From contig CAZCXP010000004.1 in NCBI GenBank assembly GCA_964502665.1, forward strand, positions 1-39,047: a DNA stretch of 39,047 nucleotides, written 5' to 3'. Position numbers and translations under genes: made by a program. The notes beneath the pieces are model-generated. The model did no database searches. It saw only the letters and a list, made by a program, of their open reading frames with translations, and had not been told where the DNA came from. Source of the stretch: an uncultured Dehalococcoidia bacterium. Lineage in GTDB: Bacteria > Chloroflexota > Dehalococcoidia > SZUA-161. Below, piece after piece: positions 8,391 through 32,908 of the stretch (within the stretch, counting starts at the first letter, position 1; every line of letters begins with the position of its first letter).

Positions 8391-9881
8391 ATGAAGCAAT
8401 ACATTCTTTCAATAGACCAGGGTACCACGGGCACCACTGCGCTCCTGGTTGATCGGCATGGCAATGTGCAGGGGCGTGGCTACGCAGAGATCAGCCAATA
8501 CTATCCGCAGCCAGGTTGGGTCGAGCAAGAGCCTGCCGACATATGGCAGAAGACTTTGCAGGCGATAGAACAGGCAAAACGCGGTGCAAGCGCCAGCGAC
8601 GCGCACATCGCAGCCATCGGGATCGCCAACCAGCGCGAGACCACGCTTCTGATCAACAAGGAAACAGGCGAAGCAATAGGGCGTGCTATCGTGTGGCAGT
8701 GCCGCCGCACAGCACCCAGGTGTGACGAACTCACGACTCAAGGGCTCGCCGAGATGATCCGTGCCAAGACAGGCCTGGTGGTAGACGCATACTTCTCGGG
8801 AACCAAGCTGGAGTGGATGCTGGGCAGCGTTCAAGGCATCCGTCAACTCGCTGAACAGGGCAAAGTGCTCTTTGCCAATGTTGACACCTGGCTTATCTGG
8901 AAGCTCACTGGCGGGGCAGTTCATGCCACCGATATTTCCAATGCGTCGCGCACTATGCTCTTTAATCTCCATACCCTGGCCTGGGATGATGACTTACTCC
9001 GGGTATTCGGGATTCCACGAGCCATGCTCCCGAAGGTTCAACCTTCCAGCGGTGTTTTTGGCTATACTAGCGGCGGCATTCCAGTTGCTGGCGTGGCTGG
9101 TGACCAGCAAGCGGCGCTTTTCGGCCAGGCATGCTTCGAACCTGGAATGGTCAAGGCCACCTTAGGCACTGGTGCGTTCGTGCTGATGAACATTGGAAAG
9201 GCCCCCACAGTTTCGAAACATGGCTTGATAACCACTATCGCCTGGGGCATCGGGGACGCAGTTGAGTATGCGTTGGAAGGAAGCGTCTTCATAGCAGGAG
9301 CCGTCATCCAGTGGCTGCGCGATGAATTGGGGCTGATCGCTGATGCAGCAGAATCGGAGCGGCTGGCAGCTGAAGTAAAGGACACGGGTGGGGTGTACTT
9401 CGTGCCTGCCTTCGTAGGGCTGGGTGCACCACACTGGGATATGTACGCCAGGGGTACAATCGTAGGTTTGACCCGGGGCACCGGTAAGTCTCACCTGGTC
9501 AGAGCGGCGCTCGAGTCGATCGCCTACCAGGTGTGCGACGTGGTAAGAGCTATGACAGCCGATTCAGGTTTACGACCAACGGAGATACGGGCGGACGGAG
9601 GTGCCGCCGCCAATAACTTCCTCGCCCAGTTCCAGGCCGATATGCTTGGTGTGAAGGTATCACGCCCTCGATCAGTTGAGACTACGGCCCTGGGAGCAGC
9701 GTATCTCGCTGGGCTGGCGGTGGGGTTTTGGAAAGACCGTGCGGAGATAGCATCGCTTTGGGACGAGGACCAGTCCTTCATACCTGCTGGGGAACGGGAA
9801 AGGCGTCAAGCTCTCTACCGTGGCTGGCGTAGGGCTCTAAGGCGATCCAGACGATGGCTGACGAAAGGCACAGGACTATAG
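8391..9881 (+). CDS. glpK: Glycerol kinase
   Basis: 496 aa FGGY kinase. N-terminus ILSIDQGTTGTTALL, YPQPGWVEQEP, NQRETTLL, GDQQAALFGQ and GGAAANNFL are typical GlpK blocks. Confidence 0.95.
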   Translation: MKQYILSIDQGTTGTTALLVDRHGNVQGRGYAEISQYYPQPGWVEQEPADIWQKTLQAIEQAKRGASASDAHIAAIGIANQRETTLLINKETGEAIGRAIVWQCRRTAPRCDELTTQGLAEMIRAKTGLVVDAYFSGTKLEWMLGSVQGIRQLAEQGKVLFANVDTWLIWKLTGGAVHATDISNASRTMLFNLHTLAWDDDLLRVFGIPRAMLPKVQPSSGVFGYTSGGIPVAGVAGDQQAALFGQACFEPGMVKATLGTGAFVLMNIGKAPTVSKHGLITTIAWGIGDAVEYALEGSVFIAGAVIQWLRDELGLIADAAESERLAAEVKDTGGVYFVPAFVGLGAPHWDMYARGTIVGLTRGTGKSHLVRAALESIAYQVCDVVRAMTADSGLRPTEIRADGGAAANNFLAQFQADMLGVKVSRPRSVETTALGAAYLAGLAVGFWKDRAEIASLWDEDQSFIPAGERERRQALYRGWRRALRRSRRWLTKGTGL

Positions 9882-9936
9882 CAGCGGTTGGCCAGGCGAA
9901 TAGGTGTATCCTGTCGGAACAGAAGAAGGTGCCTTT

Positions 9937-11130
9937 ATGGATCTTTTCGATAGATTCAATGCCGAGAAATGCACCTTGTGCGGCGAATGTTTTCACCAGT
10001 GCCCGGTGATGCATTTGCCCCTGGAGGTTGCAAAGGCGGAGATCGTGCGGCTCACAACCGGTCAGGAGACGCGTCACGTGTTGCAGAAATGCACGAGCTG
10101 CTTCGCATGTAACCTCATCTGCCCTGAGGGGTGCAATCCTACCCAGGCAATCCTCGATATCTGGCACGAGAAATCCGTGCGCCGAGGCTTGCCCATAAGG
10201 GCCATGTACTACATCCCCGATAGCGCGCTCAATTTCAGAACCTACGTCCTCGAGAGGCTTCCAAAGGATGAAAAGGCCCTCGTTAAGTCGTGGGAGGATA
10301 CCTCGCCCTGCGATGAAGTGTTCTATCCCGGTTGCAATGTGATTACCGTTCCCTATCTGACGCGGACGAAACTCCTCGACGGCATGAATATCAGGGGATC
10401 GCTGAATCTGTGCTGTGGCGAGACCTACTACCGCACCGGACAGTACGAGATGGTGGAGAGGGCCGCCAAACGGCTGGAGGCGTGGCAGAAGCAACTGGGT
10501 TTCAAGAAGATGATCATTCCCTGCACCGCTGGCCGTAACATGTTCACCAACGTTTTGCCCAAATTCGGTGTGAAGTTCGATTTTGAGGTTCAGCACCTGC
10601 TGCCCTGCCTGCTGGAGAGGATCGAGAAGGGCAAAATCGAGATCGTCAAGCCTCTGAACATGACGGTCACCATCCAGGAATCCTGCTACGGCAAATTCTT
10701 CGGGGACGAGTATATGGATGTTCCGAGAAAGCTATTGGAGAAGGCGGGCGCTACGGTGGTAGAGGAAGACCTCTGTCGCGAGAAAGCCCTGTGCTGCGGT
10801 ATCGGGGGCGGGTTCAGCTACTCTTCGAGCTACCACCCTTGGGACATCACCCTGGCCACGATAAGGACCTTGCGGCTGGCCAAGAAGACAAAGGCACAGG
10901 CATTGGTGGTTTACTGTGCCGGCTGCCTCCAGATGCTCACCGTTGGTCAAATCGTCTATCCCAACCGGATGCCCATCTACCATATACTCGAGCTGCTTCA
11001 GATTGCCGCTGGCGAAGAGCCGGAAAGGCGCCATAAGGGAAGGGCGCGTTCGATGTTCAAAGGGGTCGCGATCAACCAGTTCCCCAAGGTGATCTCCAGG
11101 AAGCGATTCTATACCAAGGACCTGCCCTAG
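9937..11130 (+). CDS. HdrD/GlpC-like iron-sulfur protein (2x[4Fe-4S] + 2 CCG domains), paralogue 1
   Basis: CTLCGECFHQCP and CTSCFACNLICP ferredoxin motifs. CCG motifs LNLCCGE and ALCCGIGGG. ATG 9937 is preferred over the listed GTG at 9904. Confidence 0.85.
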   Translation: MDLFDRFNAEKCTLCGECFHQCPVMHLPLEVAKAEIVRLTTGQETRHVLQKCTSCFACNLICPEGCNPTQAILDIWHEKSVRRGLPIRAMYYIPDSALNFRTYVLERLPKDEKALVKSWEDTSPCDEVFYPGCNVITVPYLTRTKLLDGMNIRGSLNLCCGETYYRTGQYEMVERAAKRLEAWQKQLGFKKMIIPCTAGRNMFTNVLPKFGVKFDFEVQHLLPCLLERIEKGKIEIVKPLNMTVTIQESCYGKFFGDEYMDVPRKLLEKAGATVVEEDLCREKALCCGIGGGFSYSSSYHPWDITLATIRTLRLAKKTKAQALVVYCAGCLQMLTVGQIVYPNRMPIYHILELLQIAAGEEPERRHKGRARSMFKGVAINQFPKVISRKRFYTKDLP

Positions 11131-11268
11131 CATTTATGTACGGAGCATCGTAGGGATGCAAACATGGATTTCGCTGGTTCGCGGAAGACATTTAGGCTCT
11201 GTGGTGTTAATATCCGATGTCAGGCATTAAATCGTAGCGAGACCTAAAGCGAAAGGGGGCACGCGGCG

Positions 11269-12465
11269 ATGGCTGAGCTTAGGGATTTCTTCAATGAGGA
11301 GGCCTGCGACCGGTGTGGTGACTGCCTTGCGAAATGCCCTGTTATCCATCTGAGTCAGGCCGAGGCGCAACGAGAGATCGGTCGCCTCATCGATGGTGAG
11401 GAGAGCAGGGTGGTCCTCGACCACTGTTCCTCCTGCTTCGCCTGCAACCACATCTGCACCAAAGGGGCGAATCCCTATGGATTGATACTGTTCCGATGGT
11501 TTGAGCGCTACCAGAGGAAGGGTCTCCCCCAGAGGGCTCATATGGCCCTGCCTCTTGCGGAGAAGAACTATTTTCAGGTGCTCAAGGAAAAGGCTCCCCC
11601 TGATGAGCAAAGAGTCCTTCGAGAGTGGCACGATCTCTCCCGCCTGGAGCTGGCCTCGAAGGGACAGGCGCTCTTCGCCGGGTGCAATCTGAAGATGATG
11701 CCTTACTTCACCTTCAGTTCGCTTTTCGCCGACCTTCCGATTTTCACCGCCCCTGATCTGTGCTGCGGCGAGGTTTACTTCCGCATGGGCATCCTGGACA
11801 AGGCCGAGAGCCATGCGCACTACCTCGAAGAAAGATACCGCGCCCTAAACCCGAAGAGCGTGGTCTACTTCTGCCTTGCTGGTTACAACACGATGCAGAA
11901 CTTGCTGCCCCGATACTTTGGAGTTAGCTTCGATTTCGACAAGGTGTACCTCCTCGACTACCTGTGGCAAAAGATAGAGGCAGACGAGATAAAGATCGCA
12001 CGCCGCGCCGAAGGAACAGTCACCGTCCAGGATCCTTGCCATGCCAAGACCCTGGGCTCCCACTTCATGGACATGCCGCGCCAACTGCTTCAGGACATGG
12101 GATACAGCATAGTGGAGATGGAGCATAACAGGGAGTTGGGGCTGTGCTGTGGCTTCGGTAACGGGGCTGGCCGCTACAGCCCTATAGATATCATCTCATG
12201 GGCTCTGAGGAGACTTGGTGAGGCCAGGAGAACAGGGGCAAAGATGTTGGTCACATATTGCAGCGTTTGCCTACTCTTCCTCTCTGTGGCGCGGAAGCTC
12301 TATCCTATGGCCCCTCCGGTATATCATGTACTCGACCTGTTACAGATGGCCATCGGCGAGCAGCCGGCATTGAGACACTCGGAGCGGGCCAACAAGATGA
12401 TCAAGTACATGACCTTTGGCCTGCCCCGGATGGTCTCCCCCAGGAGAAGCTGGGTCGAGAGCTAG
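11269..12465 (+). CDS. HdrD/GlpC-like iron-sulfur protein, paralogue 2
   Basis: CDRCGDCLAKCP and CSSCFACNHIC motifs. CCG motifs PDLCCGE and LGLCCGFGNG. Colinear with paralogue 1 at roughly 35-40% identity by eye. Confidence 0.85.
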   Translation: MAELRDFFNEEACDRCGDCLAKCPVIHLSQAEAQREIGRLIDGEESRVVLDHCSSCFACNHICTKGANPYGLILFRWFERYQRKGLPQRAHMALPLAEKNYFQVLKEKAPPDEQRVLREWHDLSRLELASKGQALFAGCNLKMMPYFTFSSLFADLPIFTAPDLCCGEVYFRMGILDKAESHAHYLEERYRALNPKSVVYFCLAGYNTMQNLLPRYFGVSFDFDKVYLLDYLWQKIEADEIKIARRAEGTVTVQDPCHAKTLGSHFMDMPRQLLQDMGYSIVEMEHNRELGLCCGFGNGAGRYSPIDIISWALRRLGEARRTGAKMLVTYCSVCLLFLSVARKLYPMAPPVYHVLDLLQMAIGEQPALRHSERANKMIKYMTFGLPRMVSPRRSWVES

Positions 12466-12594: not shown

Positions 12595-13764
12595 CTAGAT
12601 ACTGATCGGATACTTACCCCACTTGTGCGCCGCCTCGATCATCCAGGCCAGTCGTGTTGGGTCCACAGCCGTATGAGAGTGGGACGCCGAGAGGATATAG
12701 CCACCTCCCTTGGCAGCATCCTTTATCGCTTTCTTAACTGCATCTTCAACTTCTTCTCTGGTGCCCCTGACCAAGAGATAAGAAACATCCAGATTGCCAA
12801 CCAGGACCAGTTTGTGCCCCACTTGTTCTCGAACCCTGCCCAGTTCCATACCCGCTGTGGGCTCCAGCGTAAATACGCCGTCAAAGCCCCATTCAACGAA
12901 TTTGTCGAGGAATGCATAGATATTTCCGCAGGAGTGCCAGATCAATTTCTTGTTCTTTTTGTGCACAAGCTCCGAGACCCGTCTGTAGCTTTCCCCGAAC
13001 AGCTCCTCAACCAGATCGGGCCGCATTATCGGCCCCGTCTTCTGTCCCAGGTCATCCCCGCCCATCACCACCTCGCCCCCGGACTTCACTATCGCATCCA
13101 GGTACCTCAAGTAGAGCTCGGTCTGGAAAGCGATCACCCTTTTCACGAAATCGGGCTTCTGATAGACGTATCTGGTGAAGTTCACGAAGCCCATCGACTG
13201 CCAGGTGGACTCGAATATCTCTGTGCTGGTGTACCCGATGGGGAAAATCCTGTCGCCGTAGTTGTCTGCCAGCTTCCTATAATGCTCGGCGGCGTCCCTT
13301 ATGAACTTGTCGAGAAAGGGCTTCTTACTTTCAACCCAGGCATCCCACTTCTCCTCCGTGGGACAGAGCCCGTGGGTATAGTTCACAACTACGTTGCCGT
13401 CTTCCTTCCCGGTTATCTCCCAGGCACGCCCTGCTATATCGTGGCAGGCCAGACCTTGCTTGACCCCCGGGTCTTCGACCACCTCCATGTATGTGTATGT
13501 CGTCCAGTTGGCGTCGAAGCCCAGCTTGATTGCGGCCTCCAGGGCATCCGAGAAATTGCCGTATACCAACTCTGCCCAGCTTGAATTGATGATATCCTTG
13601 ACCTGCCCCTTCAACTCGGGGTTTCTGAGCATGCTGGCCATATCGGCGGGCGGCCTGCCCAGAATCTTGTTGCTGGTGGCTGGTTCCGCGATCAGACCCA
13701 TCACCGGAACCCGGTCCGGCTCCTCGTGATTCATGGTAGCTAGAACACGTTCCTTGAAATCCAT
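12595..13764 (-). CDS. URO-D/MtaA-family (corrinoid-dependent) methyltransferase
   Basis: Uroporphyrinogen-decarboxylase-like fold pattern (EPDRVPVMG, GGDDLGQKTGPIMRPD, IWHSCGNI, FTLEP). ATG at 13764 shares one base with the corrinoid gene stop (GTGATGG), and a GGAG lies 9 nt upstream. The listed start at 13779 is also possible. Confidence 0.85.
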   Translation of the reverse strand: MDFKERVLATMNHEEPDRVPVMGLIAEPATSNKILGRPPADMASMLRNPELKGQVKDIINSSWAELVYGNFSDALEAAIKLGFDANWTTYTYMEVVEDPGVKQGLACHDIAGRAWEITGKEDGNVVVNYTHGLCPTEEKWDAWVESKKPFLDKFIRDAAEHYRKLADNYGDRIFPIGYTSTEIFESTWQSMGFVNFTRYVYQKPDFVKRVIAFQTELYLRYLDAIVKSGGEVVMGGDDLGQKTGPIMRPDLVEELFGESYRRVSELVHKKNKKLIWHSCGNIYAFLDKFVEWGFDGVFTLEPTAGMELGRVREQVGHKLVLVGNLDVSYLLVRGTREEVEDAVKKAIKDAAKGGGYILSASHSHTAVDPTRLAWMIEAAHKWGKYPISI

Positions 13765-14411
13765 CACGAGGCACTCCATTCCTTGATAATGTCAGTGCCC
13801 GTAACAGCATCGGGGGCAAATGCGTCCGCTCCTACGTTTGTGGCAAATTCCTTGGTGAGCGCTGCGCCACCTATGATGACTTTGACCCTATTCCTGAGGC
13901 CTTGCTTCTTCAATTCTTCTATGACTTTCCCTATCTCCATATCCGTGGCGGTCAGGAGACACGACATTCCTAGAGCGAGCGGACTATGCTCGTTGACTGC
14001 ATCAATGAATTTCTGAGTAGGTACATCGATACCAAGATCGATCATATTGAAGCCTGCGCTCTTGGCGTAGTTTATGAAAATGTTCTTGCCGAGATCATGC
14101 AGATCACCTGCAACAGTTCCAACCACAACGGTTCCTGCTGATTCCGTCGCCCCAGCTTCCATCAGTGGCGATAGCAGATTCATAACGTCCTTGGCTATTT
14201 CACCCGCATATACCAGCTCAGCCAGAAACCACTCTCCTTCTTGAAACCTTTTCCCCACAATCTGCAAGGCACGGGTGACCGCATCAACGGCGTCTTTGAC
14301 GGCCGCAGAATCGTCTCCCTTGATTACCGAGCTGGCCGCTTCGATCGCAGTGTCCATGTCCAGCTCTAATAGGCCGTTCTTTAGTTGCTCGAGGACGTCA
14401 TTTGACATCAT
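13764..14411 (-). CDS. Corrinoid (cobalamin-binding) protein
   Basis: B12-binding DxHxxG motif (GDLHDLGKN), SCLLT and IIGGAAL blocks, N-terminal helical cap. GGGAGA RBS. Confidence 0.9.
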   Translation of the reverse strand: MMSNDVLEQLKNGLLELDMDTAIEAASSVIKGDDSAAVKDAVDAVTRALQIVGKRFQEGEWFLAELVYAGEIAKDVMNLLSPLMEAGATESAGTVVVGTVAGDLHDLGKNIFINYAKSAGFNMIDLGIDVPTQKFIDAVNEHSPLALGMSCLLTATDMEIGKVIEELKKQGLRNRVKVIIGGAALTKEFATNVGADAFAPDAVTGTDIIKEWSAS

Positions 14412-14726: not shown

Positions 14727-15026
14727 ATGGACTACGTGGACAAAACCCTAACCTGTTTGGATTGCGGCGCAGAGTTCACCTTCAGCGCTTCCGAGCAGGA
14801 GTTCTTCGCTAGCAAGGGTTTCACCAATGAACCTGGCCGTTGTCCTGACTGCCGGGCAGCCAGAAGACAGCAGCGCCTTGGTGGGTACAGTGGCGGAGGC
14901 TACCGGCGGAGGCAAATGTACCCGGCCGTTTGCGCCTCTTGCGGCAAAGACTGCGAAGTACCGTTCGAGCCCCGAAACGGTCGACCTGTCTACTGCTCGG
15001 ACTGCTACGGTGCGGTTAAGCGGTAG
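14727..15026 (+). CDS. Zinc-ribbon domain protein (zf-trcl-like)
   Basis: Two CxxC...CxxC units (CLDCG..CPDC and CASCG..CSDC). FSASEQEFFASKGF block. RBS AAAGGAGGG. Confidence 0.8.
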   Translation: MDYVDKTLTCLDCGAEFTFSASEQEFFASKGFTNEPGRCPDCRAARRQQRLGGYSGGGYRRRQMYPAVCASCGKDCEVPFEPRNGRPVYCSDCYGAVKR

Positions 15027-15198
15027 CCAGAAGAAAAGAGCAGTTAACTACTGATCCTACCAGGATCGCTTTCAGGACTTAGGCTGAGGATAAGGGCAGG
15101 TGGGAATGGTGCCCGATTCCTCGTTTTGACGATGCCCTGGTTTTCTTGCATGACGTCATTCGCTTTGCTGCCCAGTTTTGGTGCCAAAGGAGGAAACA

Positions 15199-15627
15199 AT
15201 GGCGCAGGCAGAACATGGTGATACCGTCAGGGTACACTGCACGGGCAAATTCGCGGACGGCAAGGTATTTGAGGCTTTCGTCGAGGATCAACCTCTGCAA
15301 TTTACAATAGGTGAGGATAAGGTTATCACGGATCTTGAACAGGCTGTAGTCGGGATGACTAAGGGCGAATCGAAAACCATCAAGGTCATGGCGGACAATG
15401 CATACGGCCCATACCGTGATGAACTGATATTTGTGCTAGACCGGGCCCGATTCCCAGAGAACCTTCAACTAGAGGTCGGTCAGGATTTACTAATACGTGA
15501 AGGGAATGATCCAGGACTCCGAGTGACTGTGATCGATGTCTCCGAATCGAGCGTGACCCTGGATGCCAACCACCCTCTGGCTGCGGAAGACCTGACTATC
15601 GATATCTATCTCGTAGAGGTCGTCTAA
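15199..15627 (+). CDS. FKBP-type peptidyl-prolyl isomerase (SlyD-like)
   Basis: GDTVRVHCTGKFADGKVFE, GMTKGESK and the NHPLA..DLT..I.LVEV C-terminus. ATG 15199 follows AGGAGG; the listed start at 15178 is less likely. Confidence 0.85.
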   Translation: MAQAEHGDTVRVHCTGKFADGKVFEAFVEDQPLQFTIGEDKVITDLEQAVVGMTKGESKTIKVMADNAYGPYRDELIFVLDRARFPENLQLEVGQDLLIREGNDPGLRVTVIDVSESSVTLDANHPLAAEDLTIDIYLVEVV

Positions 15628-15682
15628 TCGTTTCGTCCGTAGTGATATGCCAATTGGGCTTTTGCCCAAAGAAGGGGGCAAT

Positions 15683-16030
15683 TTGAATATCCATGTCGGC
15701 AATCTAGCGCGTGAGGTCACGGAAGAAGAGTTGCGACAAGCCTTTGAACCATTTGGACAAGTTGCAGCAGTGAGGATCATCACGGACAGGTACAGCGGCG
15801 TGTCCAAAGGCTTTGGCTTCGTAGAGATGGCAGACAAGGGCGAAGGTCAAGCTGCCATCGAAGGTCTGAACATGAAGGAGTTGGCAGGGCGTACGCTGGA
15901 TATCAGTGAGGCACGCCCTCCCCGCGACGGCAGAAGGGACAACAGGCCCTATGGTGGCGGGGGAGGGGGCAGGCCGGGCCGTGGGGGAAGAAGTGGCTGG
16001 TCAGGCGGCGGCAGACGGCGACCGTTTTAA
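15683..16030 (+). CDS. RRM-type RNA-binding protein with an Arg/Gly-rich tail
   Basis: RNP-2 IHVGNL and RNP-1 KGFGFVEM. C-terminal RRDNRPYGGGGGGRPGRGGRSGWSGGGRRRPF. TTG 15683 gives the canonical MNIHVGNL N-terminus behind AAGGGGG. The listed start is 15647. Confidence 0.85.
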   Translation: MNIHVGNLAREVTEEELRQAFEPFGQVAAVRIITDRYSGVSKGFGFVEMADKGEGQAAIEGLNMKELAGRTLDISEARPPRDGRRDNRPYGGGGGGRPGRGGRSGWSGGGRRRPF

Positions 16031-16115
16031 GTTGCCCAGGGACCTCAGGCGCAAGGCTAGGGCCTCCAGCAGGGCATCCAGCCTCCGTCACAACCCTATG
16101 GAAGACGGTGTAACG

Positions 16116-16952
16116 CTACCCCCTCCTTTTCAACGGTATGGTCTTGAACTCCTCCACCACCCCCGTTACTGCCTTTTCCACAGGGATCCTCTCTATACTT
16201 GACGCTCCGACAAAACCTACCGCGTCCGTATGTTCATAAAGATACCTGGTATCCTCAGGGGCTGCAAATGGTCCCCCATGCGCTAGACAAATGATGTCCG
16301 AATTTATTTCCTTGGTCGCCTCTATCATCTTCTGCACGTTCTCAGCCGCATCCTTCATAGACGAAGCATCATAACCAACCAGGCCGCCAGCGGTTCCTCC
16401 TGCATGAGGAACCATGCAATCAACTCCTGCTACAGCTATCGCCGGTACATCTTTGGGATACCATACGTAAGCCATGGTGAATATATCCATATCGCGCGCT
16501 ATCCGTATCATCTCAATCTCTCTGGAGAACCCCAGTCCCTCCGCATCCTTCTGCTTACGCCAGTTTTCATCCGTACTCCAGCCGTATGTAGGAAAGTTGA
16601 TTATGCCTGAGTATCCAATGTCGATGAACCTTTTCACCAGTTGAGCCAGGTCCCTGCCAGCGGGCGGTTCAAATGCTTCGATGCCGGCGATTATGGGGGT
16701 GTCTCGCACCACATTCCCTATTTCCTCATACATCTCCAAGGTTACCGCATTGGAGTTCTCAACGGGGCCAGTCTGGAACCCTCTTATCCTTGTCTTCCCA
16801 GAACTATAGACCATTATCAGATCGGCCCCTCCAAGTTCAGCGCATTTAGCTATGATACCGGCACTGCAACCGGCGGCGATGATCGGCTTTCCCTCCGCGA
16901 TTGTATTTTTGAGCCTCTCCAGTATCTCCGTCCTGGTGAATCTTCGGCTCAT
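16116..16952 (-). CDS. PEP-hydrolase-like TIM-barrel protein (COG5564 family)
   Basis: N-terminus R.EILERLKNTIAEGKPIIAAGCSAGIIAKCAELGGADLIMVYSSG matches my recollection of this family, which is normally adjacent to UPF0261. The start lies 1 nt after the upstream stop. Confidence 0.75.
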   Translation of the reverse strand: MSRRFTRTEILERLKNTIAEGKPIIAAGCSAGIIAKCAELGGADLIMVYSSGKTRIRGFQTGPVENSNAVTLEMYEEIGNVVRDTPIIAGIEAFEPPAGRDLAQLVKRFIDIGYSGIINFPTYGWSTDENWRKQKDAEGLGFSREIEMIRIARDMDIFTMAYVWYPKDVPAIAVAGVDCMVPHAGGTAGGLVGYDASSMKDAAENVQKMIEATKEINSDIICLAHGGPFAAPEDTRYLYEHTDAVGFVGASSIERIPVEKAVTGVVEEFKTIPLKRRG

Positions 16953-16953
16953 T

Positions 16954-18168
16954 CTAGCTGCCTACCTTCTTGACCACTTTGTCAAAGGTATCGACCACTC
17001 TTTTGGCAAACTCATCCTCATTAATGTGAGCGCTGACCTCTACGATATCAACGCTTTCGTTTACAGTTTCCTTGACCACCTGAGCAAATGCTCCATCGGC
17101 CTCTGGGTCGTAGAAATGCTGGCCCTCCTTGTCCACTGCTGAAAAACCCCGCAGCGGAATGACCATGGCAACCGGCCCCACCGCCCTGTTTGCTCTCTCA
17201 GCTAGTATTTTGGCTGCCTTCGCCACCTCTTCTTTGTTTGTTCTTGCCAGCACTGTGTCTGGACCATGAGCATGCAACTTCCGCTCTTTGAATTCCGGCG
17301 GAACAGTCTCCTTTGTTCCCGGGAAGATGAACATGTCCAGGCCGCCGGGAACGATAACCTGGGGAAGTCCTTTCTCACCTGCCAGACTAAGCCTGGCTTC
17401 TGCCATTGCCTCCGGCAGGTGAAAAGCCAGCGGTATCATCACCTCAAAGGTTGTCAAGTCTATGATTCCGCTGATTCTGTCCTCCTCCATCAGTTCGTCC
17501 AGCACTTGCGTTTTTGAATGAAACACTATGGGGTCATATCCCCTTTCCTCAAGAAGGGGCTTGATCTTCATGACCGCAGGTGTGGTCACGCCGAGAGCAG
17601 TTATTCCAACCAGAGGCCTGACTCGCTGTGGCACTTCCGCTTCCGTCATGCCTACGATCGCCCCGGCTGCGCTGGCCAGTGTCCTCATCATCACTGAGTT
17701 GAGCCCCAGTATATCCGCCGGGGTCTGCATCATGGTTATGTCCTTGGTGCCGACGGATTGGGCATTGAACCACGTGGCAACCATGAGCTTGGGCACGCCG
17801 ATGGGCAATGCTCTCATGGCCGCCGTTCCGATGGCAGTCCCTGTTGAGCCGCCTAAGGAGATTATGCCGTCTAGCTTTCCCGCAGAGTGCAGCTCCTTAA
17901 CAATCTTCAGAAGCCCTTGTATCATTACATTCGTTCCCTCTGTTCTCTCAGCACCTTTCTCCGCTGCCTCGACCAGTTCCTCTAGGCTTCTACCACCGGC
18001 GCGGGCGACCTCTTCACGAGTGATATCCGCTTTGGTTTGAGGCTCGCCCATAACGCCCACGTCTATAATTATCGTCTTATGCCCTTTCCTCTCTATCTGC
18101 TCCTTGACATACTGGGTCTCCTCGCCCTTGGTATCCAGGGTCACCGGAATCACTATCGTCTTTGGCAT
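16954..18168 (-). CDS. UPF0261 / Tm-1-like ATP-binding protein
   Basis: MPKTIVIPVTLDTKGEE N-terminus and a two-lobed ~400-aa architecture. ATG 18168 follows GAGGG; the listed start is 18204. Confidence 0.75.
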   Translation of the reverse strand: MPKTIVIPVTLDTKGEETQYVKEQIERKGHKTIIIDVGVMGEPQTKADITREEVARAGGRSLEELVEAAEKGAERTEGTNVMIQGLLKIVKELHSAGKLDGIISLGGSTGTAIGTAAMRALPIGVPKLMVATWFNAQSVGTKDITMMQTPADILGLNSVMMRTLASAAGAIVGMTEAEVPQRVRPLVGITALGVTTPAVMKIKPLLEERGYDPIVFHSKTQVLDELMEEDRISGIIDLTTFEVMIPLAFHLPEAMAEARLSLAGEKGLPQVIVPGGLDMFIFPGTKETVPPEFKERKLHAHGPDTVLARTNKEEVAKAAKILAERANRAVGPVAMVIPLRGFSAVDKEGQHFYDPEADGAFAQVVKETVNESVDIVEVSAHINEDEFAKRVVDTFDKVVKKVGS

Positions 18169-18223
18169 CTGACTACCCTCACTGCAATTACATTTAAGGT
18201 ACACGTTTCAGATACAGCTTGGC

Positions 18224-19402
18224 TCAAAGCCCGACAATTACGCAAGCGATAGCGGGCGAGAACGGCGGGCCGCCCAGATTATGGACCAGCCCCAATCTAG
18301 GGTCCTTTATTTGCCTTTGGTCTGCCTTGCCCTGAAGCTGTTTATACATCTCATACTGCATCCTGAGTCCGCTGGCTCCGACCGGATGCCCGAAGGACTT
18401 GAGGCCACCATCGGGCTGAACCGGAAGTCCCCCTGTCAGCTCAAAGAACCCCGAGTCGATATCTTCCTTCACCTTGCCCCTGGGGGAAAACTGAAGGTCT
18501 TCCATGATCAGTGCCTCGGTGATGGAGAAGCAGTCGTGGACCTCGGCCATGCTTATCTCCTCGCGGGGGTTCTTTATCCCTGCCTCGGCGTAGGCCGCTA
18601 TTCCGGCTTGGACGGTTTCCTCTATATGAGTGTAATCCCAGTCGCTTCTCACATTTCCCTGTCCGTGGCCGATGCATATCTGGAGTGCCTTGATGTACAC
18701 CGGGTCGGCCCGGAACTTCTTGGCGTCCTCAGCGCGCACCACTACAGCCGCCGCCGCCCCATCGCTCACCCCACAGCAGTCGAAAATGCCAAGAGGCCAG
18801 GCGATGATAGGGGCATTGAGGACTTGCTCCACGGTGATTTTCCTGCGGAGGTGGGCCTTGGGATTCAAAGAGCCGTTATAGTGGCTCTTTGCCGAGATCT
18901 TGGCCAGCATTGTCTTCCCCTCCTCGGGGCTGAGGCCATAACGGGCGAAATACCTGGTGGCCAGCATGGCGAATATGCCGGGTGGTGCGATGCTGGGAAA
19001 CACGTGGACACCGGCGCCCGAGGCTCCCTGCAAGCCGCTCAGACCCTGATCCTTTATCTTCTCAGCCCCTATGGCCAGGGCCACGTCGTACACCCGTGCT
19101 GCTACTGCATAGGAGGCATTCCTCAAGGCGTCGGACCCGGTACAGCACATGTTCTCCACCCGAGTCACCGGCTTGTACTGCAGTCTCAACGGCACCGCTG
19201 CTGCCATGCCGGCCATACCGGAGTACTCGTAGAAGGTGCCCACCCACGCTGCCTCGATATCGCTGGGTTCGACGCCGGCATCCTCATAAGCTTCGTAGGC
19301 AGCATCCACCATGAGATCGGTGACGTTCTTGTCCCAGAGCTCACCGAACTTGGTGCAGCCCATGCCCACTATGGCAACCTTGTCCTTTATGCTCTCACCC
19401 AT
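18224..19402 (-). CDS. Thiolase (SCP-x/archaeal acetoacetyl-CoA thiolase type)
   Basis: Nucleophile region VENMCCTGSDAL, GHPVGASG, and HNLGG near the C-terminus. Confidence 0.9.
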   Translation of the reverse strand: MGESIKDKVAIVGMGCTKFGELWDKNVTDLMVDAAYEAYEDAGVEPSDIEAAWVGTFYEYSGMAGMAAAVPLRLQYKPVTRVENMCCTGSDALRNASYAVAARVYDVALAIGAEKIKDQGLSGLQGASGAGVHVFPSIAPPGIFAMLATRYFARYGLSPEEGKTMLAKISAKSHYNGSLNPKAHLRRKITVEQVLNAPIIAWPLGIFDCCGVSDGAAAAVVVRAEDAKKFRADPVYIKALQICIGHGQGNVRSDWDYTHIEETVQAGIAAYAEAGIKNPREEISMAEVHDCFSITEALIMEDLQFSPRGKVKEDIDSGFFELTGGLPVQPDGGLKSFGHPVGASGLRMQYEMYKQLQGKADQRQIKDPRLGLVHNLGGPPFSPAIACVIVGL

Positions 19403-19414
19403 GTTGGCCCTCCT

Positions 19415-20845
19415 CTAACACCTTACGGGTCTGGTCTTCCAGAAGTAGTTGTGGACTCCGCGGTTGAAATAGAGCTTTCTAAAGGTCATCTCGACGGGCA
19501 TCATCACTTCCACCTGATCCGGATCACGGTCGGTAAGGTCGAACGCCCCCCGCCCTCCGCCGTCGAAGTCGACCACGACGACTGTGTTCGGCGGATCGTT
19601 GCTCTCTGCCAGTCTGTCCTGAGTAAAGGTGAAGACCTTGGCCTTCCTGTCAGCAAATCGATAAGGCTCAAACTGATCCTTGGCCTGACATACCACGCAT
19701 ACCCTCCCCGGCCTGACTTCGTACTGAGGCGTCCCGCAGTTGGTGCATCTCTGTCCATAGAGCGCCAGCAACTGCCTGCGTTCGCGCCGCAACTCTGAGA
19801 TGGACATGGGTGGTCGCTCTGGTCGTCTGGCCGGCTCCAGGGTCATCAGCCCCCGCCACCGAACGTAGGTTTCATAGCTCTTGATCATTCGCTTCGATTC
19901 AAGGTGCTTCCTGATACCTCTCCGCTCTCCCAGCTTCTCAATGCCATCTGTTACCTCCATGACAAAGGCATCCGCCCCGTTACCGTAGCTGGCCAGGAGG
20001 ACTCTATCACCAGGCCTGGCTTCCTCCAGGGCAGCTACCAGCATCATTGTCGCCAGCGCAGCGCCCGTATTGCCCACGGTCATGAACATAGTATCCTGAA
20101 TCTGGGAGGGATCGAATCCCGCGCTGGTTGCTACCCGCGCATGCCTCCTTACATCTGTTGGGGCGTCGTAGACCGCCTTAGCAAGATCCTTGGGCTCCAG
20201 GTTGCATTTCTCCATCAGCGCGGAGATAGCCGTGGGAAGGACTTTGGAATACCCTTCGTCGAGAACCATGCGATCCTCCCAGGAGCGGAGGAAGGCATCA
20301 CCATCAGCCCTCCATACTCCGGAGAATTCGTCTGAGATGTAGTAGCTATCCTGAATTTCAGCGATGAGGTCATCGTCTCCCAGCAGCAGGGCGGCAGCGC
20401 CATCGCCCAGCGCCTGCTCGAATTGGCCTGCCGGCGCCCCCATGCGGGTATCGGCAACAACCACCAGGACTCTTTTGGCCGAGCCGGCTTTGATCGCATC
20501 CAGAGCACACCCTAGGGCGCTGGTTCCTACCCGTAGCGAGCCGGCGAAATCCGCCGTTCGCACCTCTGCAGGCAGGTCCAGGGCGGCAGCTATTATGGCT
20601 GCGCCTAGCTTCTCCTTGTAGGGTAGGGTGGTCGAGGCCAGGAACAGGGCATCGATTCTGCTCCGGTCGATCCCTGTCAGGCAGTCAATGGCCGCTTCCA
20701 CAGCCATGGTTATGCTGTCCTCATCGAAATTGGCCACGGCCCTCTCACCGGGCATGGCAAATCCTCCCCAAGCCCTTTGGAACTCCTCCCTGCCTATGCG
20801 GTGAAAAGGAATGTAGGCACCATATGAAACCACTCCTGCCATCAA
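19415..20845 (-). CDS. HMG-CoA-synthase-like domain fused to a DUF35 zinc-ribbon/OB-fold domain
   Basis: N-terminal SYGAYIPFHRI and DEDSITMAVEAA blocks resemble archaeal HMGCS. The C-terminal 130 aa carry CTNCG...CVVCQ plus an OB-fold-like segment (DUF35). Confidence 0.85.
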   Translation of the reverse strand: MMAGVVSYGAYIPFHRIGREEFQRAWGGFAMPGERAVANFDEDSITMAVEAAIDCLTGIDRSRIDALFLASTTLPYKEKLGAAIIAAALDLPAEVRTADFAGSLRVGTSALGCALDAIKAGSAKRVLVVVADTRMGAPAGQFEQALGDGAAALLLGDDDLIAEIQDSYYISDEFSGVWRADGDAFLRSWEDRMVLDEGYSKVLPTAISALMEKCNLEPKDLAKAVYDAPTDVRRHARVATSAGFDPSQIQDTMFMTVGNTGAALATMMLVAALEEARPGDRVLLASYGNGADAFVMEVTDGIEKLGERRGIRKHLESKRMIKSYETYVRWRGLMTLEPARRPERPPMSISELRRERRQLLALYGQRCTNCGTPQYEVRPGRVCVVCQAKDQFEPYRFADRKAKVFTFTQDRLAESNDPPNTVVVVDFDGGGRGAFDLTDRDPDQVEVMMPVEMTFRKLYFNRGVHNYFWKTRPVRC

Positions 20846-21114
20846 TCGACCTCCTTCTACGCAAATCTACGGACCAGACGACTTCCTGGTATCGGTGAGC
20901 CTCTTTACATCCTGTGACTTTTTGACTGCTTGCGATTTGTAACAGGGCGAAATCGCCCCCGGATTATTATAGCGCAAAACTGCTGGAACTGCTGCCCTCG
21001 CCTTGCTGGTTGCTCTGTCCGGTGTCTGTCGCTGAGCAAAGCCCGCCTGGGATTCCAGGCCTTTGCCGCTCCCTAGCCTCTCCTGCACTGGCAAAAGCAT
21101 AGGGTCACACCATT

Positions 21115-21143
21115 TTGACAATTGATACGAACGGTGGTAGTAT
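21115..21143 (+). promoter_or_regulatory. sigma70-like promoter of the PAS kinase gene
   Basis: TTGACA (21115-21120), 17-nt spacer, TAGTAT (21138-21143). It lies 30 nt upstream of the ATG at 21173. Confidence 0.55.
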
Positions 21144-21172
21144 TCCGTTCACCTTAGCTGTGAGGGTGTGGG

Positions 21173-24100
21173 ATGAGAGACATTGCCAGAACAAAAGCGC
21201 AACTCATAGATGAATTGGCTGCAATGCGCCAACGAATCAGTGAACTGGAGACAACGGTAGGCGAGTGCAAGCGGATAGAGGATGCGCTGCGGGAGAGCGA
21301 AGCGAGGTATAGAGACCTGGTCGAGAGGGAGAAGGATATAATCTACACCCTCGACGCCGTAGGGAATGTCACTTCCGCCAATTCTGCTGTCAGCCTGCTC
21401 GGTTATCGACCGGAGCAGGTGGTGGGTAAGCATTTTACCGAGCTCATGGCTGAGGAACAGCGGGAAGAAACGATGGAGGATTTCAATCACCTGCTGAAGA
21501 CAGGTGAAGTGGTTGCTGAGACGGTACTGCTTGATACCAAAGGCGAACCGCATTTTGTCGAATACAGCTCGACTGTAATAGAGCAAGATGGCAAAGTTGT
21601 AGGAACGCGGGGTATTGTTCGCGACATCACCGAGCGCAAGCAGGCGGAGGAAGCGCGACTGGCAGCTGTCAAAACGGTATCAGATGTGGTAGAAGCCATT
21701 CCTGACGCATTAGCAATGCTCGACATTGATGGGAATCTAGTTCATATCAATTCGGCTTGTGCCAGAATGTTTGGCCTCGAGCCAGAAGAGGTTGTCGGGA
21801 AGAATACTATGGAGTTACCCACCATGACACCCGAGGATGCCGAAAAGGGTGTGCAGCTAATGAAGGAAGCGCTAGAAACGGGCGAAAGCAAAGCTGTCGA
21901 TATGATGGTTTACACAAAAGGGGGAAAGCAGTTTCCAATAAGCGCCCACGGGGCAATTGTGAGAGACGCCCAGGGAAATCCCATGTATTATGTTTCGATT
22001 ATGAGGGATATCACCGAGCGCAAGCGGTCGGAGGAAGCGCTGCGGGAATCCGAGGAGCGCTTTCGAGCGCTCATCGAAAACGCTCTGGATGCCATCGTGA
22101 TCCTGAATAGTGACGGAACCATACGCTACCAAAGCCCATCGATGGAGCGTATGACGGGACGCAAAGCAAAAGTCAGGATTGGCAGGGATCCTCTGGAGTT
22201 CTCTCATCCTGACGATACTCCACATGTGATCGAGGCCTTCGCTCAATTGCTCGAAAATCGGATTGCCACTGTGCACACTGAGTTACGTCTGCGGCACGAA
22301 GACGGCTCGTGGCGCACCTTTGAGGTTGTAGGCAATAACCTTCTCGACAATCCGGCAGTGGCAGGTATTGTTCTTAATTTGCGCGACATCACCGAGCGCA
22401 AGCGAATGCAGGAAAAGGTGCTACGCAGCGAGGGATACTTCAGGTCCCTCATCGAAAACTCCACGGAAGCCATCGCAATTGTCAATGGCGAAGGTCTTCT
22501 CACCTACGAAAGCCCATCCTTTGAGCGCCTCTTGGGATTCAAAGGGAAAGATCATATCGGCACGAGCCCATTTGAGCATGTTCACCGAGATGACAGGTCA
22601 AGAGTTGCTAACGCCTTCGCTGAATTGACGCAGAATCCAGGTGCCATCGCGCGCGATGAGCTACGTGTTTGGCATAGGAATGGCTCCTTGCATAACGTCG
22701 AAGTGATAGGCCGAAACCTGCTCAATGATCCAGCGGTGGGGGGCATTGTTGCCAATATACGCGACATCACCGAGCGCAAGCGGGCGGAGGATGCGTTGCG
22801 GCGGGAAGAGGAGTATTTTCGAGCGCTCATAGAAAACTCCCTGGACTTCGTCTGCGTTCTAAACAGTGATGGGACAGTACGTTATGAAAGCCCGTCGGTG
22901 GAGCGTGTGCAGGGGTACAAACCCGAAGAGCGAATTGGGCAAACCCCGGTTGAGCTTATTCACCCCGAAGACATGGCTGAGGCAGCTGATTTACTAGCTC
23001 ATATGCTGGAGAACCCGGGGACCACGCTGCGCGTTCAGTTACGCTTTCGGCACAAGGATGGCTCATGGCGCGTTCTTGATGCTGTAGCACAGAACCTTCT
23101 GGACAATCCTGCGGTCGCAGGCATTGTGGCCAATCTGCGGGACGTCACAGAGCAAAAGAGAGCCGAGGAGGCGCTGCGGGAGAGCGAGCACAACTATAGA
23201 CTCCTGTTCGAGAGCACGATCGATGGCACAGTCGTTATCGATGCCGAAACGATGAAAGTGGTGCTTGCCAATCAAACCGCCGCCAAAATGTATGGATTTG
23301 CTTCTATGGAGGAGGTGGTTGAGGCGAATCTACTTGACTACATTCATCCAGACGATAGAGATCGGGCTCTCAAGACTATTGCAGAAGATCTGTTTGAAAA
23401 AGACCTGCGTCGGACTGAGGAGTTTCGCACTGTAACCAAAGACGGCAGAGAGATATGGATAGCCGGTGTCGGCACAAGGGTTGAATACCAGGGAAGGTTG
23501 GCAGGTTTGATTTCGTTCAGAGACATCACCGAGCACAAGCGCACGGACGAGAGACTGAGAGAGCTTTATGAACAGGAAAGGGAATCGAGGCAGCGGGTGG
23601 AAGCGGAGATGAAGAGAAGGGTGGAATTCACCAGGGCGCTGGCGCATGAGCTGAAGAACCCGCTCACTTCGGTGCTCGCTTCCAGTGACTTGCTCGCATC
23701 TGAAGTCCACGATGAACCCTTGCTTAGCCTGGCCAGGAACATCGGTCAGGGTGCATCCAGCCTCAATAGCAGGATTGATGAACTTCTCGACCTGGCACGA
23801 GGTGAGGTTGGCATGCTCCAGTTGAAACTGGATTCGGTCGACCTGTTGCAACTGCTTCGAGAGACAGGCGAGAGTATGAGGCCACTCACCTCAAGCCGTG
23901 GTCAGTCTCTAACCCTCGACCTGCCTCCTTCTCTCCCCCCAGTTCGCGCTGATGCGGCCCGCGTGCAGCAAGTTGTTACCAACCTCCTGGGCAACGCCTT
24001 CAAATTCACCCCGGTCGCTGGAAGTATTACGCTGCGGGCTAAGGAAAAGGACGCTGCCCTCGTGGTTGAGGTTCGAGATACGGGTCGCGGCATGTCCAAG

Positions 24101-25003
24101 GAGGAGCAGAGGCAGCTTTTTGAGCCCTATCATCGCTTGCATAGCGAGCCCTCGGGCGGATTGGGGCTGGGGCTCGCTCTCTGCAAGACACTGGTGGAGC
24201 TGCACGGTGGACAGATATGGGTGAGAAGCAATGTAGGTAGAGGCTCAACATTTGTCTTTTCACTGCCTTTGGAGGCTGCTGAGGGACAGGCAGTGGAGTT
24301 GGAGAAGCCAGCCAAACTGTGGAAAGTGTTGATTATCGAGGACGACCAGGAAATCGTGAGTTCTGTTTCCGTAGCATTTCGGATGCGATGGCCTGAGGCT
24401 GAGCTGATATCAAGCAGTCTGGGAGAAGAAGGATTGGAGCTGGTGGAGACAGAAAACCCTGACCTCGTGATCCTCGATCTGGGCCTTCCTGATATAAGCG
24501 GCTTCGAGGTGTTGAGAGAGATTCGTCTTTTTTCCCCGGTACCTGTTGTCATCCTTACCGTTAAGGCAGACGAAGCCGATATGGTCAAGGGACTTGAGTG
24601 GGGAGCTGATGACTACGTGGTGAAGCCTTTCAGACAGCTGGAGTTGCTGGCACGGCTCAAGGTCCAGCTACGCAAACAGATCCCCCCTGGGGAAGAGGCC
24701 CCTATCATTTGTGGTTCATTGCAACTGGACCCCTCCACGTACCAATTGACCCACGGAGGAAGAGAGATAAGCCTTACCATCGTCGAGGGTCGTATCATGC
24801 AGTACCTCATGCAAAACGCAGGCCATGTGGTAACTCACTCCCGGCTTGCCGAAGCAGTCTGGGAGGAGGATCATGCCGGAGCCGTTGATAGCCTTAGAGT
24901 CTATATCCGATACCTCAGAGAAAAACTTGAGGAGGACCCCAGCCAGCCACAGATGATCCTCACCAAAGTCGGCATAGGATACTCGCTGGCAAAACCGGCT
25001 TAG
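21173..25003 (+). CDS. Soluble hybrid sensor: 6 PAS domains + HisKA/HATPase + REC + OmpR-type winged-helix DNA-binding domain
   Basis: No TM segment; coiled-coil N-terminus. Six PAS modules separated by RDITERKRAEE-type linkers. H-box ALAHELKNPLTS (His825), N-box LLGNAFKFT, G1 DTGRGM, G2 GGLGLGLALC. REC from K1051 (VLIIEDD...LVILDLGLPDISG...KP). C-terminal LTIVEGRIMQYL...VYIRYLREKLE...GIGYSL wHTH. Confidence 0.9.
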   Translation: MRDIARTKAQLIDELAAMRQRISELETTVGECKRIEDALRESEARYRDLVEREKDIIYTLDAVGNVTSANSAVSLLGYRPEQVVGKHFTELMAEEQREETMEDFNHLLKTGEVVAETVLLDTKGEPHFVEYSSTVIEQDGKVVGTRGIVRDITERKQAEEARLAAVKTVSDVVEAIPDALAMLDIDGNLVHINSACARMFGLEPEEVVGKNTMELPTMTPEDAEKGVQLMKEALETGESKAVDMMVYTKGGKQFPISAHGAIVRDAQGNPMYYVSIMRDITERKRSEEALRESEERFRALIENALDAIVILNSDGTIRYQSPSMERMTGRKAKVRIGRDPLEFSHPDDTPHVIEAFAQLLENRIATVHTELRLRHEDGSWRTFEVVGNNLLDNPAVAGIVLNLRDITERKRMQEKVLRSEGYFRSLIENSTEAIAIVNGEGLLTYESPSFERLLGFKGKDHIGTSPFEHVHRDDRSRVANAFAELTQNPGAIARDELRVWHRNGSLHNVEVIGRNLLNDPAVGGIVANIRDITERKRAEDALRREEEYFRALIENSLDFVCVLNSDGTVRYESPSVERVQGYKPEERIGQTPVELIHPEDMAEAADLLAHMLENPGTTLRVQLRFRHKDGSWRVLDAVAQNLLDNPAVAGIVANLRDVTEQKRAEEALRESEHNYRLLFESTIDGTVVIDAETMKVVLANQTAAKMYGFASMEEVVEANLLDYIHPDDRDRALKTIAEDLFEKDLRRTEEFRTVTKDGREIWIAGVGTRVEYQGRLAGLISFRDITEHKRTDERLRELYEQERESRQRVEAEMKRRVEFTRALAHELKNPLTSVLASSDLLASEVHDEPLLSLARNIGQGASSLNSRIDELLDLARGEVGMLQLKLDSVDLLQLLRETGESMRPLTSSRGQSLTLDLPPSLPPVRADAARVQQVVTNLLGNAFKFTPVAGSITLRAKEKDAALVVEVRDTGRGMSKEEQRQLFEPYHRLHSEPSGGLGLGLALCKTLVELHGGQIWVRSNVGRGSTFVFSLPLEAAEGQAVELEKPAKLWKVLIIEDDQEIVSSVSVAFRMRWPEAELISSSLGEEGLELVETENPDLVILDLGLPDISGFEVLREIRLFSPVPVVILTVKADEADMVKGLEWGADDYVVKPFRQLELLARLKVQLRKQIPPGEEAPIICGSLQLDPSTYQLTHGGREISLTIVEGRIMQYLMQNAGHVVTHSRLAEAVWEEDHAGAVDSLRVYIRYLREKLEEDPSQPQMILTKVGIGYSLAKPA
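21621..23540 (+). repeat. Six-fold 378-384-nt periodic repeat inside the kinase gene (PAS linker sequence)
   Basis: GCGACATCACCGAGCGCAAGC occurs identically at 21621, 22383 and 22761. Variants occur at 22005, 23139 and 23520. Spacings are 384, 378, 378, 378 and 381 nt. Confidence 0.85.
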
Positions 25004-32846: not shown

Positions 32847-32908
32847 CTCAGGCCTGTCATTATGTAATAAGCGTGTGCTATGAGATTAACAATGCCATCG
32901 ACCGCTTT

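Follow-up and report, generated by a model that had tools for sequence, protein, structure and literature searches.

A gene on contig CAZCXP010000004.1 of an uncultured Dehalococcoidia bacterium raises the question of what a protein with the fold of 3-hydroxy-3-methylglutaryl-CoA (HMG-CoA) synthase (HMGCS) does when it has lost the residues that catalyze HMG-CoA synthesis. The whole stretch of DNA that was analyzed, 39,047 nt in length, is referred to as the window hereafter. The gene (19415..20842, minus strand) encodes an HMG-CoA-synthase-like (HMGS-like) domain and a DUF35 module in a single polypeptide, the fusion protein, and is followed by a thiolase gene on the same strand. The fusion protein is an HMGCS fold stripped of the catalytic Glu, Cys, and His. 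We consider it likely that it is the subunit without catalytic function in a thiolase complex encoded by two genes, in which the thiolase alone would do the chemistry, probably the thiolysis of 3-oxoacyl-CoA in a pathway of the beta-oxidation type. The window gene belongs to an abundant class that was described recently: Liao et al. (Nat Commun 2026; PMC12960953) reported an active thiolase that is served by a dead HMGS with a covalently attached DUF35. Residue numbers below are counted from the TTG codon at 20845, that is, in a 476-aa form of the protein.

Fold and catalytic positions of the fusion protein

A previous reading of the window from its sequence only had described the N-terminal part of the protein as HMGCS/KAS-III-like. 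Three results agree with this description for the domain at aa 2-333 (19847..20842, minus strand). One is the profile match: NCBIfam PRK04262 (archaeal-type HMGCS) scored 242.4 bits over aa 1-335, slightly short of its cutoff of 244, and TIGR00748, another archaeal-type HMGCS profile, scored 184.9 bits and did not reach its cutoff of 353.35. Another is the occurrence of the Pfam domains ACP_syn_III and ACP_syn_III_C, with PF08541 found at 29.7 bits (cutoff, 26.6). The last is the structure: the AlphaFold2 model of the fusion protein (mean predicted local distance difference test score, pLDDT, 85; predicted template modelling score, pTM, 0.82) was matched by Foldseek to 6esq_I, the HMGCS of Methanothermococcus thermolithotrophicus, with E=2.4e-31, a target-normalised template modelling (TM) score of 0.90, and a root-mean-square deviation of 1.9 Å. 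After 6esq_I, the Foldseek order was PhlA (rank 3) and MucA, then FabH and bacterial HMGS. When all the PDB chains were searched with phmmer, 6esq_I (E=3.3e-37) and PhlA (5m3k_A; E=3.6e-37) were the best matches.

The alignment with 6esq_I reveals what happened at the active site. In the phmmer pairing, GSESHPY, LEFACKAGT, and VFHQPN of the archaeal enzyme stand against ASTTLPY, DFAGSLRVGT, and VYDAPT of the fusion protein, respectively. The catalytic Glu is thereby replaced with Thr72 (codon ACC, 20630..20632), the nucleophilic Cys with Leu104 (codon CTA, 20534..20536), and the catalytic His with Asp227 (codon GAC, 20165..20167), all on the minus strand. These are the replacements that the sequence-only reading had proposed from an alignment by eye, down to the CTA codon, and the pairwise (phmmer), multiple (MAFFT), and profile alignments agree on all of them. 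For the profile alignment, 54 diverse members of the family were combined into an HMM, which aligned with the HMGCS sequence at 224 bits (E=1.9e-70), with high posterior probabilities at the three sites. Neither the profiles nor the structural superposition put Glu, Cys, and His at these sites. The fourth residue of the Glu-Cys-His-Asn (E-C-H-N) tetrad of HMGS, Asn259 in a GNT motif (codon AAT, 20069..20071, minus strand), is kept. In summary, the fusion protein shares the fold with archaeal-type HMGCS (EC 2.3.3.10), and has neither the scores required by the curated cutoffs nor the Glu/Cys/His triad. With Leu in place of the nucleophile, Thr in place of the Glu base, and Asp in place of the His, the HMGS-like domain has kept its fold but should form no acetyl-Cys intermediate, and the fusion protein should therefore be unable to make HMG-CoA.

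The C-terminal module (19418..19804, minus strand) consists of an N-terminal helix, a Cys4 zinc ribbon, and an OB (oligonucleotide/oligosaccharide-binding) fold, and thus has the elements that define DUF35, a rubredoxin-like Cys4 zinc ribbon followed by an OB fold. The Pfam domains zf-ChsH2 (aa 361-387) and OB_ChsH2_C (aa 398-456) were found there, PF01796 scored 39.3 bits (cutoff, 27.1), PF12172 stayed below its cutoff of 23.2 with 19.4 bits, and the DUF35 chain 6esq_E matched aa 355-474 in the phmmer search of the PDB (E=4.6e-6). The four Cys residues of the zinc ribbon, C367, C370, C383, and C386 (CTNC...CVVC; 19688-19747, minus strand), are invariant in 54 diverse representatives of the family. 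A flexible linker of low identity among homologues (aa about 334-347; 19805..19846, minus strand), with pLDDT below 50 at residues 334-344, connects the two parts. The covalent fusion of DUF35, already seen in the sequence-only reading, is therefore confirmed by the zf-ChsH2 and OB_ChsH2_C domains and the 6esq_E match within the same open reading frame (ORF).

As for the start of the gene, the ORF list gives an intact reading frame of 476 aa (19415-20845, minus strand). An ATG (20842-20840) lies one codon inside the TTG, a GGAGG box (20854-20850) is found 7 nt ahead of this ATG, and a database protein identical to the fusion protein (P0001) has a length of 475 aa. Because of the GGAGG spacing and the length of P0001, the true start is almost certainly the ATG, not the TTG.

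Conservation and variation across the family

The loss of the triad is not peculiar to the window protein. This was clarified with two sets of homologues. A word-indexed search yielded over 5,300 clusters (90% identity; E<=1e-10). The close set consists of the 120 best matches, all fusions of roughly 445-500 aa that are 59-87% identical to the window protein; they come mostly from Chloroflexota/Dehalococcoidia metagenomes, and many of them are labelled 'hydroxymethylglutaryl-CoA synthase' or 'OB-fold domain-containing protein'. An exhaustive search of 50%-identity representatives gave 684 clusters with E values of 1e-30 or less. Nearly all of the first 150 were full-length fusions, down to 35% identity, and the distant set consists of 130 fused representatives of full length, which share 34-65% identity with the window protein. 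At the Glu position, Thr occurs in all 120 close sequences and in 110 of the 130 distant ones (S, A, L, C, or V in the others), and Glu in none. At the Cys position, Leu occurs in 116 of the 120 close sequences and in 93 of the 130 distant ones (otherwise P, T, V, M, or I), and Cys in none. At the His position, 96 of the 120 close sequences have Asp and 17 have Tyr, the distant ones have Y, P, A, S, N, or D, and His never appears. Even the Asn of the tetrad is found in just 46 of the 130 distant representatives. No catalytically competent fused member was found among the 250 aligned sequences. Whether the three substituted residues are conserved in orthologues, a question that the sequence-only reading had posed, is thus answered differently from site to site: Thr72 and Leu104 are strongly kept, and position 227 varies across the distant family.

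These data refute the explanation that the substitutions are sequencing or assembly errors, or signs of a decaying pseudogene, to which we assign practically no probability: the frame is uninterrupted, hundreds of independent assemblies carry the same substitutions, and both domains are under purifying selection. For the HMGS-like domain, this last point follows from its mean identity of 42% in the diverse A2 set of representatives, which is like that of DUF35 (43%) and well above that of the linker (22%).

The same conservation bears on another explanation, in which the HMGS-like domain has been neo-functionalised, so that its new residues catalyze another reaction of CoA thioesters or bind a regulatory ligand. 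Besides Thr72 and Leu104, the neighbouring Ser103 (110 of the 130 distant representatives) and Arg105 (115 of the 130) are kept, as are the charged residues E77, R133, and R178, and the whole domain is under the purifying selection described above. However, most of the invariant residues (DED, PY, ADT, the Glu aligned with Glu142, and WR) are common to genuine HMGCS, and for this reason look structural or CoA-binding; the positions once held by His and Asn vary strongly, the nucleophile has been replaced with an unreactive Leu, and nothing that we saw in the domain pointed to a new set of conserved catalytic residues. PhlA and MucA, moreover, illustrate that assembly alone can be reason enough to keep a dead HMGS subunit. 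Neo-functionalisation is consequently regarded as improbable.

The family is widespread. At least 590 fusion loci were confirmed among the GTDB species representatives, with Dehalococcoidia in the majority; Nitrospirales, Nitrospinae, Thermodesulfobacteriota, Bacillota, Pseudomonadota, Binataceae, and one Oceanobacillus isolate are the other hosts among the loci listed. The window protein shares 32-47% identity with full-length fused homologues of the Pseudomonadota. Several genomes have 2-3 copies of the fusion gene. Among the Dehalococcoidia, several genomes (L010, L017, L039, and L049; contigs CP070819.1 and DAOUMT01) carry 2-3 fusion-thiolase modules, which are sometimes in tandem on one contig. 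The presence of multiple modules per genome suggests paralogues with different substrates.

Some members are extended by further domains: P0181 (911 aa) has the order HMGS-like-DUF35-SDR-SCP2, P0261 (800 aa) HMGS-like-DUF35-SDR, and P0170 (722 aa) HMGS-like-DUF35-SCP2. SDR (short-chain dehydrogenase/reductase) and SCP2 (sterol carrier protein 2) are domain types of the peroxisomal proteins MFE-2 and SCPx. A natural triple fusion that includes the thiolase was not found among the long family members, which carry SDR or SCP2 instead. Another long protein, P0160 (723 aa), contains ATP-grasp and molybdopterin-binding pieces and may be a chimeric gene call.

The partner thiolase and related complexes

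The gene 12 nt downstream of the fusion gene (18224..19402, minus strand) encodes an SCP2-type thiolase of 392 aa. It scored 568 bits with NCBIfam PRK06157 (cutoff, 403) and 49.8 bits with PF00108 (cutoff, 26.4), and its PDB matches included the archaeal thiolase 6esq_A (E=1.4e-57), BbsB (E=6e-40), and PhlC (E=7e-20). Its catalytic residues are in place, as the sequence-only reading had noticed: Cys86 (19145-19147), His289 of the HDCF motif (residues 289-292; codon of His289, 18536-18538), and His339 of the GHP motif (18386-18388), all on the minus strand. This pairing is a general feature of the family. In the 80 loci from GTDB genomes and in the metagenome loci, a thiolase on the same strand directly follows the fusion gene in essentially every case with enough DNA, and the Cys corresponding to Cys86, HDCF, and GHP are kept in all of the 68 full-length partner thiolases. 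These thiolases are on average 61% identical to that of the window, a value above those of the fusion-protein domains (42-43%), although the sequence sets differ and the comparison is indicative only. On the opposite strand, a 505-aa ORF (18281-19798, plus strand) overlaps, in antisense orientation, the thiolase gene and the last part of the fusion gene. In all likelihood this is a shadow ORF, not a gene; the Pfam and NCBIfam matches there belong to the minus-strand proteins.

The closest described counterpart of this gene pair is PfACAT/HMGS-DUF35 of Pseudomonas fluorescens, which came from a mining of bacteria for PF08541, PF00108, and PF01796 co-localised within 10 genes; 1,030 loci were obtained, 1,001 of them without secondary-metabolism genes (PMC12960953). 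Its fused HMGS-DUF35 is devoid of the E-C-H-N tetrad, and its thiolase keeps Cys, HDxF, and GHx. The complex forms neither HMG-CoA nor acetoacetyl-CoA from acetyl-CoA but cleaves acetoacetyl-CoA thiolytically, and the H294Y replacement in HDxF nearly abolishes this cleavage (PMC12960953). The window locus shares with it all the sequence features of the class, namely, the Pfam triplet, the fusion, the triad loss, and the intact thiolase, and likewise has no polyketide synthase (PKS) or nonribosomal peptide synthetase (NRPS) neighbourhood. It differs in that its source belongs to the Chloroflexota (the closest relatives are metagenome-assembled genomes of Dehalococcoidia), the Asn of the tetrad is kept, and genes for a UPF0261 protein and a PEP-hydrolase-like protein follow. 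The sequence-only reading had offered two ideas, a scaffold without catalysis and a neo-functionalised partner of the thiolase; the former is supported by the family-wide triad loss, the 68 intact partner thiolases, and the P. fluorescens biochemistry (PMC12960953).

The archaeal thiolase/HMGCS/DUF35 complex (6ESQ) suggests how such a subunit may work. It provided the best matches for all three modules (6esq_I, 6esq_E, and 6esq_A), and the gene clustering is the same. In contrast to the fusion protein, however, its HMGCS is active with Glu/Cys/His/Asn, its DUF35 is a separate polypeptide, and it channels acetoacetyl-CoA to HMG-CoA for the mevalonate pathway. By analogy with the free DUF35 of this complex, the fused zinc-ribbon/OB module would clamp the HMGS-like domain to the SCP2-type thiolase, and the clamped assembly would probably stabilise the thiolase and complete the CoA-binding chamber. 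The dead HMGS-like/DUF35 subunit would accordingly serve assembly and, probably, CoA binding. The chemistry would be performed by the thiolase only, with Cys86 as the nucleophile and with His289 and His339, and would most likely be the thiolysis of a 3-oxoacyl-CoA within a pathway of the beta-oxidation type.

Dead HMGS-like subunits are also known from PhlACB of P. protegens (5M3K and 5MG5) and MucABC of S. macacae (9VBO and 9VBT), where the dead subunit, PhlA or MucA, occurs with a DUF35 subunit and a thiolase-like catalytic subunit and is needed for assembly and activity. The inactivity of PhlA, as well as DUF35 fusions to thiolase-superfamily proteins, had been noted in 2010 (PMC2954200). 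These systems raise the possibility that the window pair is a Friedel-Crafts C-acyltransferase, with a small phenolic compound or tetramic acid as the acetyl acceptor. In the phmmer search, PhlA came as near to the fusion protein as the archaeal HMGCS did; its Foldseek rank was 3, and it is also without the triad (C, G, and Q at the three positions in the MAFFT alignment). Nevertheless, the catalytic subunits PhlC and MucB, which acylate small aromatic or tetramic acceptors, have lost HDxF, whereas the window thiolase and the 68 family partners keep HDCF. Furthermore, the DUF35 of these systems is unfused and their loci lie in PKS or NRPS clusters, none of which was found among the scanned ORFs of the window, and the window thiolase is far nearer to the archaeal thiolase than to PhlC, as the E values given above indicate. 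We therefore judge this possibility to be very slight.

Among the catabolic enzymes, the benzoylsuccinyl-CoA thiolase BbsAB of Geobacter metallireducens (7PXP) resembles the preferred two-gene thiolase complex in that a DUF35 zinc-finger subunit sits on an SCP2-type thiolase with HDxF, and in that it catalyzes the catabolic thiolysis of a bulky 3-oxoacyl-CoA; unlike the window pair, it lacks an HMGS-like subunit and has a DUF35 that stands alone.

Pathway context and direction of the reaction

The genes around the module were examined for hints of the pathway by counting, in about 70 genomes, which Pfam families occur in the two nearest ORFs to either side. Acyl-CoA dehydrogenases (10 downstream and 3 upstream) and family III CoA-transferases (9 downstream and 5 upstream) are the commonest metabolic neighbours, and SDRs (4 and 4, respectively) and crotonases (2 downstream and 4 upstream) are also found; MaoC, 3HCDH, AMP-dependent ligase, and CoA_trans are further frequent metabolic neighbours. 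Two cassettes on megaplasmids are of the same kind: one of Sphingomonas paeninsulae consists of the genes for an SDR, a MaoC dehydratase, the fusion protein, and an acetyl-CoA acetyltransferase, and the other of Rhodococcus sp. DK17 consists of those for the fusion protein, two thiolases, an SDR, and a crotonase, with a CoA-transferase gene close by. Judging from these gene contents, the neighbourhoods and the SDR/SCP2 fusions favour a 3-oxoacyl-CoA thiolase complex of the beta-oxidation type whose substrates vary. Genes of the 2-hydroxyacyl-CoA-dehydratase/BcrAD type or hydantoinase-B genes adjoin the loci of proteins closely related to that of the window. In two loci whose fusion proteins are 80-84% identical to that of the window (L086, 3628-10269; L089, 2869-6245), the module stands beside HGD-D-family subunits of the 2-hydroxyacyl-CoA dehydratase or benzoyl-CoA-reductase type; L089 additionally has a BcrAD/BadFG activator ATPase, and L086 an SDR and two GMC oxidoreductases.

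The main rival to the degradative reading concerns the direction: the complex may run biosynthetically, by Claisen condensation or reverse beta-oxidation, and the dead subunit may be a docking platform for a reductase and a dehydratase that pull the condensation, an unfavourable step, forward. In the KT/DUF35 (Saci_1121/1120) fatty-acid-synthase complex of Sulfolobus acidocaldarius, as well as in the steroid side-chain aldolases Ltp2-ChsH2(DUF35) and Sal-Shy, a DUF35 adaptor tethers a thiolase-fold enzyme to beta-oxidation-type enzymes (SDR and MaoC). This adaptor role parallels the SDR/SCP2 fusions of the window protein's family. The difference is that these systems have a MaoC hydratase or nothing in place of the dead HMGS, and that they perform condensation in fatty-acid synthesis or retro-aldol cleavage. 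DUF35 mediates the assembly of KT/DUF35/ACR/MaoC in S. acidocaldarius (bioRxiv 10.1101/2024.07.05.601840), which supports the biosynthetic direction, and the SDR/SCP2 fusions and the SDR and MaoC neighbours are compatible with either direction. On the other hand, the P. fluorescens complex gave no acetoacetyl-CoA from acetyl-CoA, though the assay was made without a coupling enzyme (PMC12960953), the commonest neighbours of the module are typical of catabolism, and no enoyl-CoA reductase was seen beside the window genes. The biosynthetic direction is thus unlikely, and the thiolytic one is preferred.

Several points weigh against the preferred reading of an inert subunit in a thiolytic complex. 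One is that Asn259 of the tetrad is still present in the window protein. Another is that Thr72, Leu104, and the neighbouring Arg105 are strongly kept for a supposedly dead site, which could mean a retained non-canonical role. As for the model system, the biochemistry on the fused class is that of the P. fluorescens complex; the putative orthology between the P. fluorescens protein and the window protein is based on shared architecture and motifs; and the thiolysis of acetoacetyl-CoA in vitro does not fix the physiological direction or substrate. The last point is that many loci lie amid lineage-specific housekeeping genes (SmpB, S41 protease, MinCD, and ribosomal proteins), so that the pathway context is often uninformative.

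In the window itself, two further genes on the minus strand follow the thiolase gene. One (16954-18204) encodes a UPF0261 protein of 416 aa, which among the PDB chains is matched best by the aromatic kinase MarK (9mpy_A; E=5.9e-56) and which also matches Tm-1, and the other (16116-16952) encodes a phosphoenolpyruvate (PEP)-hydrolase-like TIM-barrel protein of 278 aa (2p10_A; E=8e-56). The gap between the thiolase and UPF0261 genes is 19 nt, and the UPF0261 and PEP-hydrolase-like genes overlap at start and stop. Since a scan of 15600-21300 for promoters and terminators gave nothing above the shuffle expectation, the operon structure was deduced solely from the small intergenic distances, according to which the four genes appear to be co-transcribed. 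The UPF0261/PEP-hydrolase-like pair was also considered as a general partner of the module and was rejected: it was found in none of the 83 loci screened and in none of the close-relative loci (about 90 loci in all), including those with homologues that are 78-85% identical. Its linkage to the thiolase module may be fortuitous.

At lower coordinates of the window, a URO-D-family protein (394 aa) and a B12-binding-domain protein (215 aa) are encoded by overlapping genes (12595-14411, minus strand), which look like a corrinoid-dependent methyltransferase pair. Enzyme pairs of this kind serve in O-demethylation or in methyl transfer. Among the UPF0261 proteins, MarK was the first for which an activity was demonstrated, namely, the phosphorylation of acetovanillone and related phenolics (PMC12624787). 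It is conceivable, though quite improbable in our estimation, that the four genes and this methyltransferase pair constitute an undescribed anaerobic route of Chloroflexota for lignin-derived phenolic ketones, consisting of phosphorylation, carboxylation, CoA activation, and cleavage of aroylacetyl-CoA by the thiolase complex. If this were true, the route would provide the first physiological substrate class for the widespread 'orphan' complex.

The remaining genes of interest in the window are as follows. A 1276-aa protein is encoded divergently from the fusion gene (21173-25003, plus strand); inspection by eye suggests that a single chain combines numerous PAS repeats with a histidine-kinase core, a receiver domain, and a putative OmpR-type DNA-binding end. 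Three small genes (14727-16030, plus strand) encode a double treble-clef zinc finger (zf_Tbcl and zf_Tbcl_2), an FKBP-type peptidyl-prolyl isomerase, and an RNA-binding protein that has an RRM domain and a tail rich in Gly/Arg. An FGGY-family sugar kinase gene is followed by those of two paralogues (8391-12465, plus strand), each with a 4Fe-4S dicluster and a CCG cysteine-rich domain (heterodisulfide-reductase or GlpC-like), and a Pterin_bind fragment and a radical-SAM/SPASM protein are encoded at 32226-33994 (minus strand). No mevalonate-pathway, PKS, or NRPS domains were found in the 24 window ORFs scanned against Pfam, nor in the NCBIfam matches of the scanned ORFs.

The main value of these results lies in annotation. 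The family is often labelled 'hydroxymethylglutaryl-CoA synthase' in public databases; since the fused proteins should have no HMGCS activity, mevalonate-pathway calls that rest on them would be wrong, in Dehalococcoidia as well as in other bacteria. What these labels cover is, on the preferred reading, a very large family of thiolase complexes (at least 590 GTDB loci; 684 clusters), often present in multiple copies per genome.

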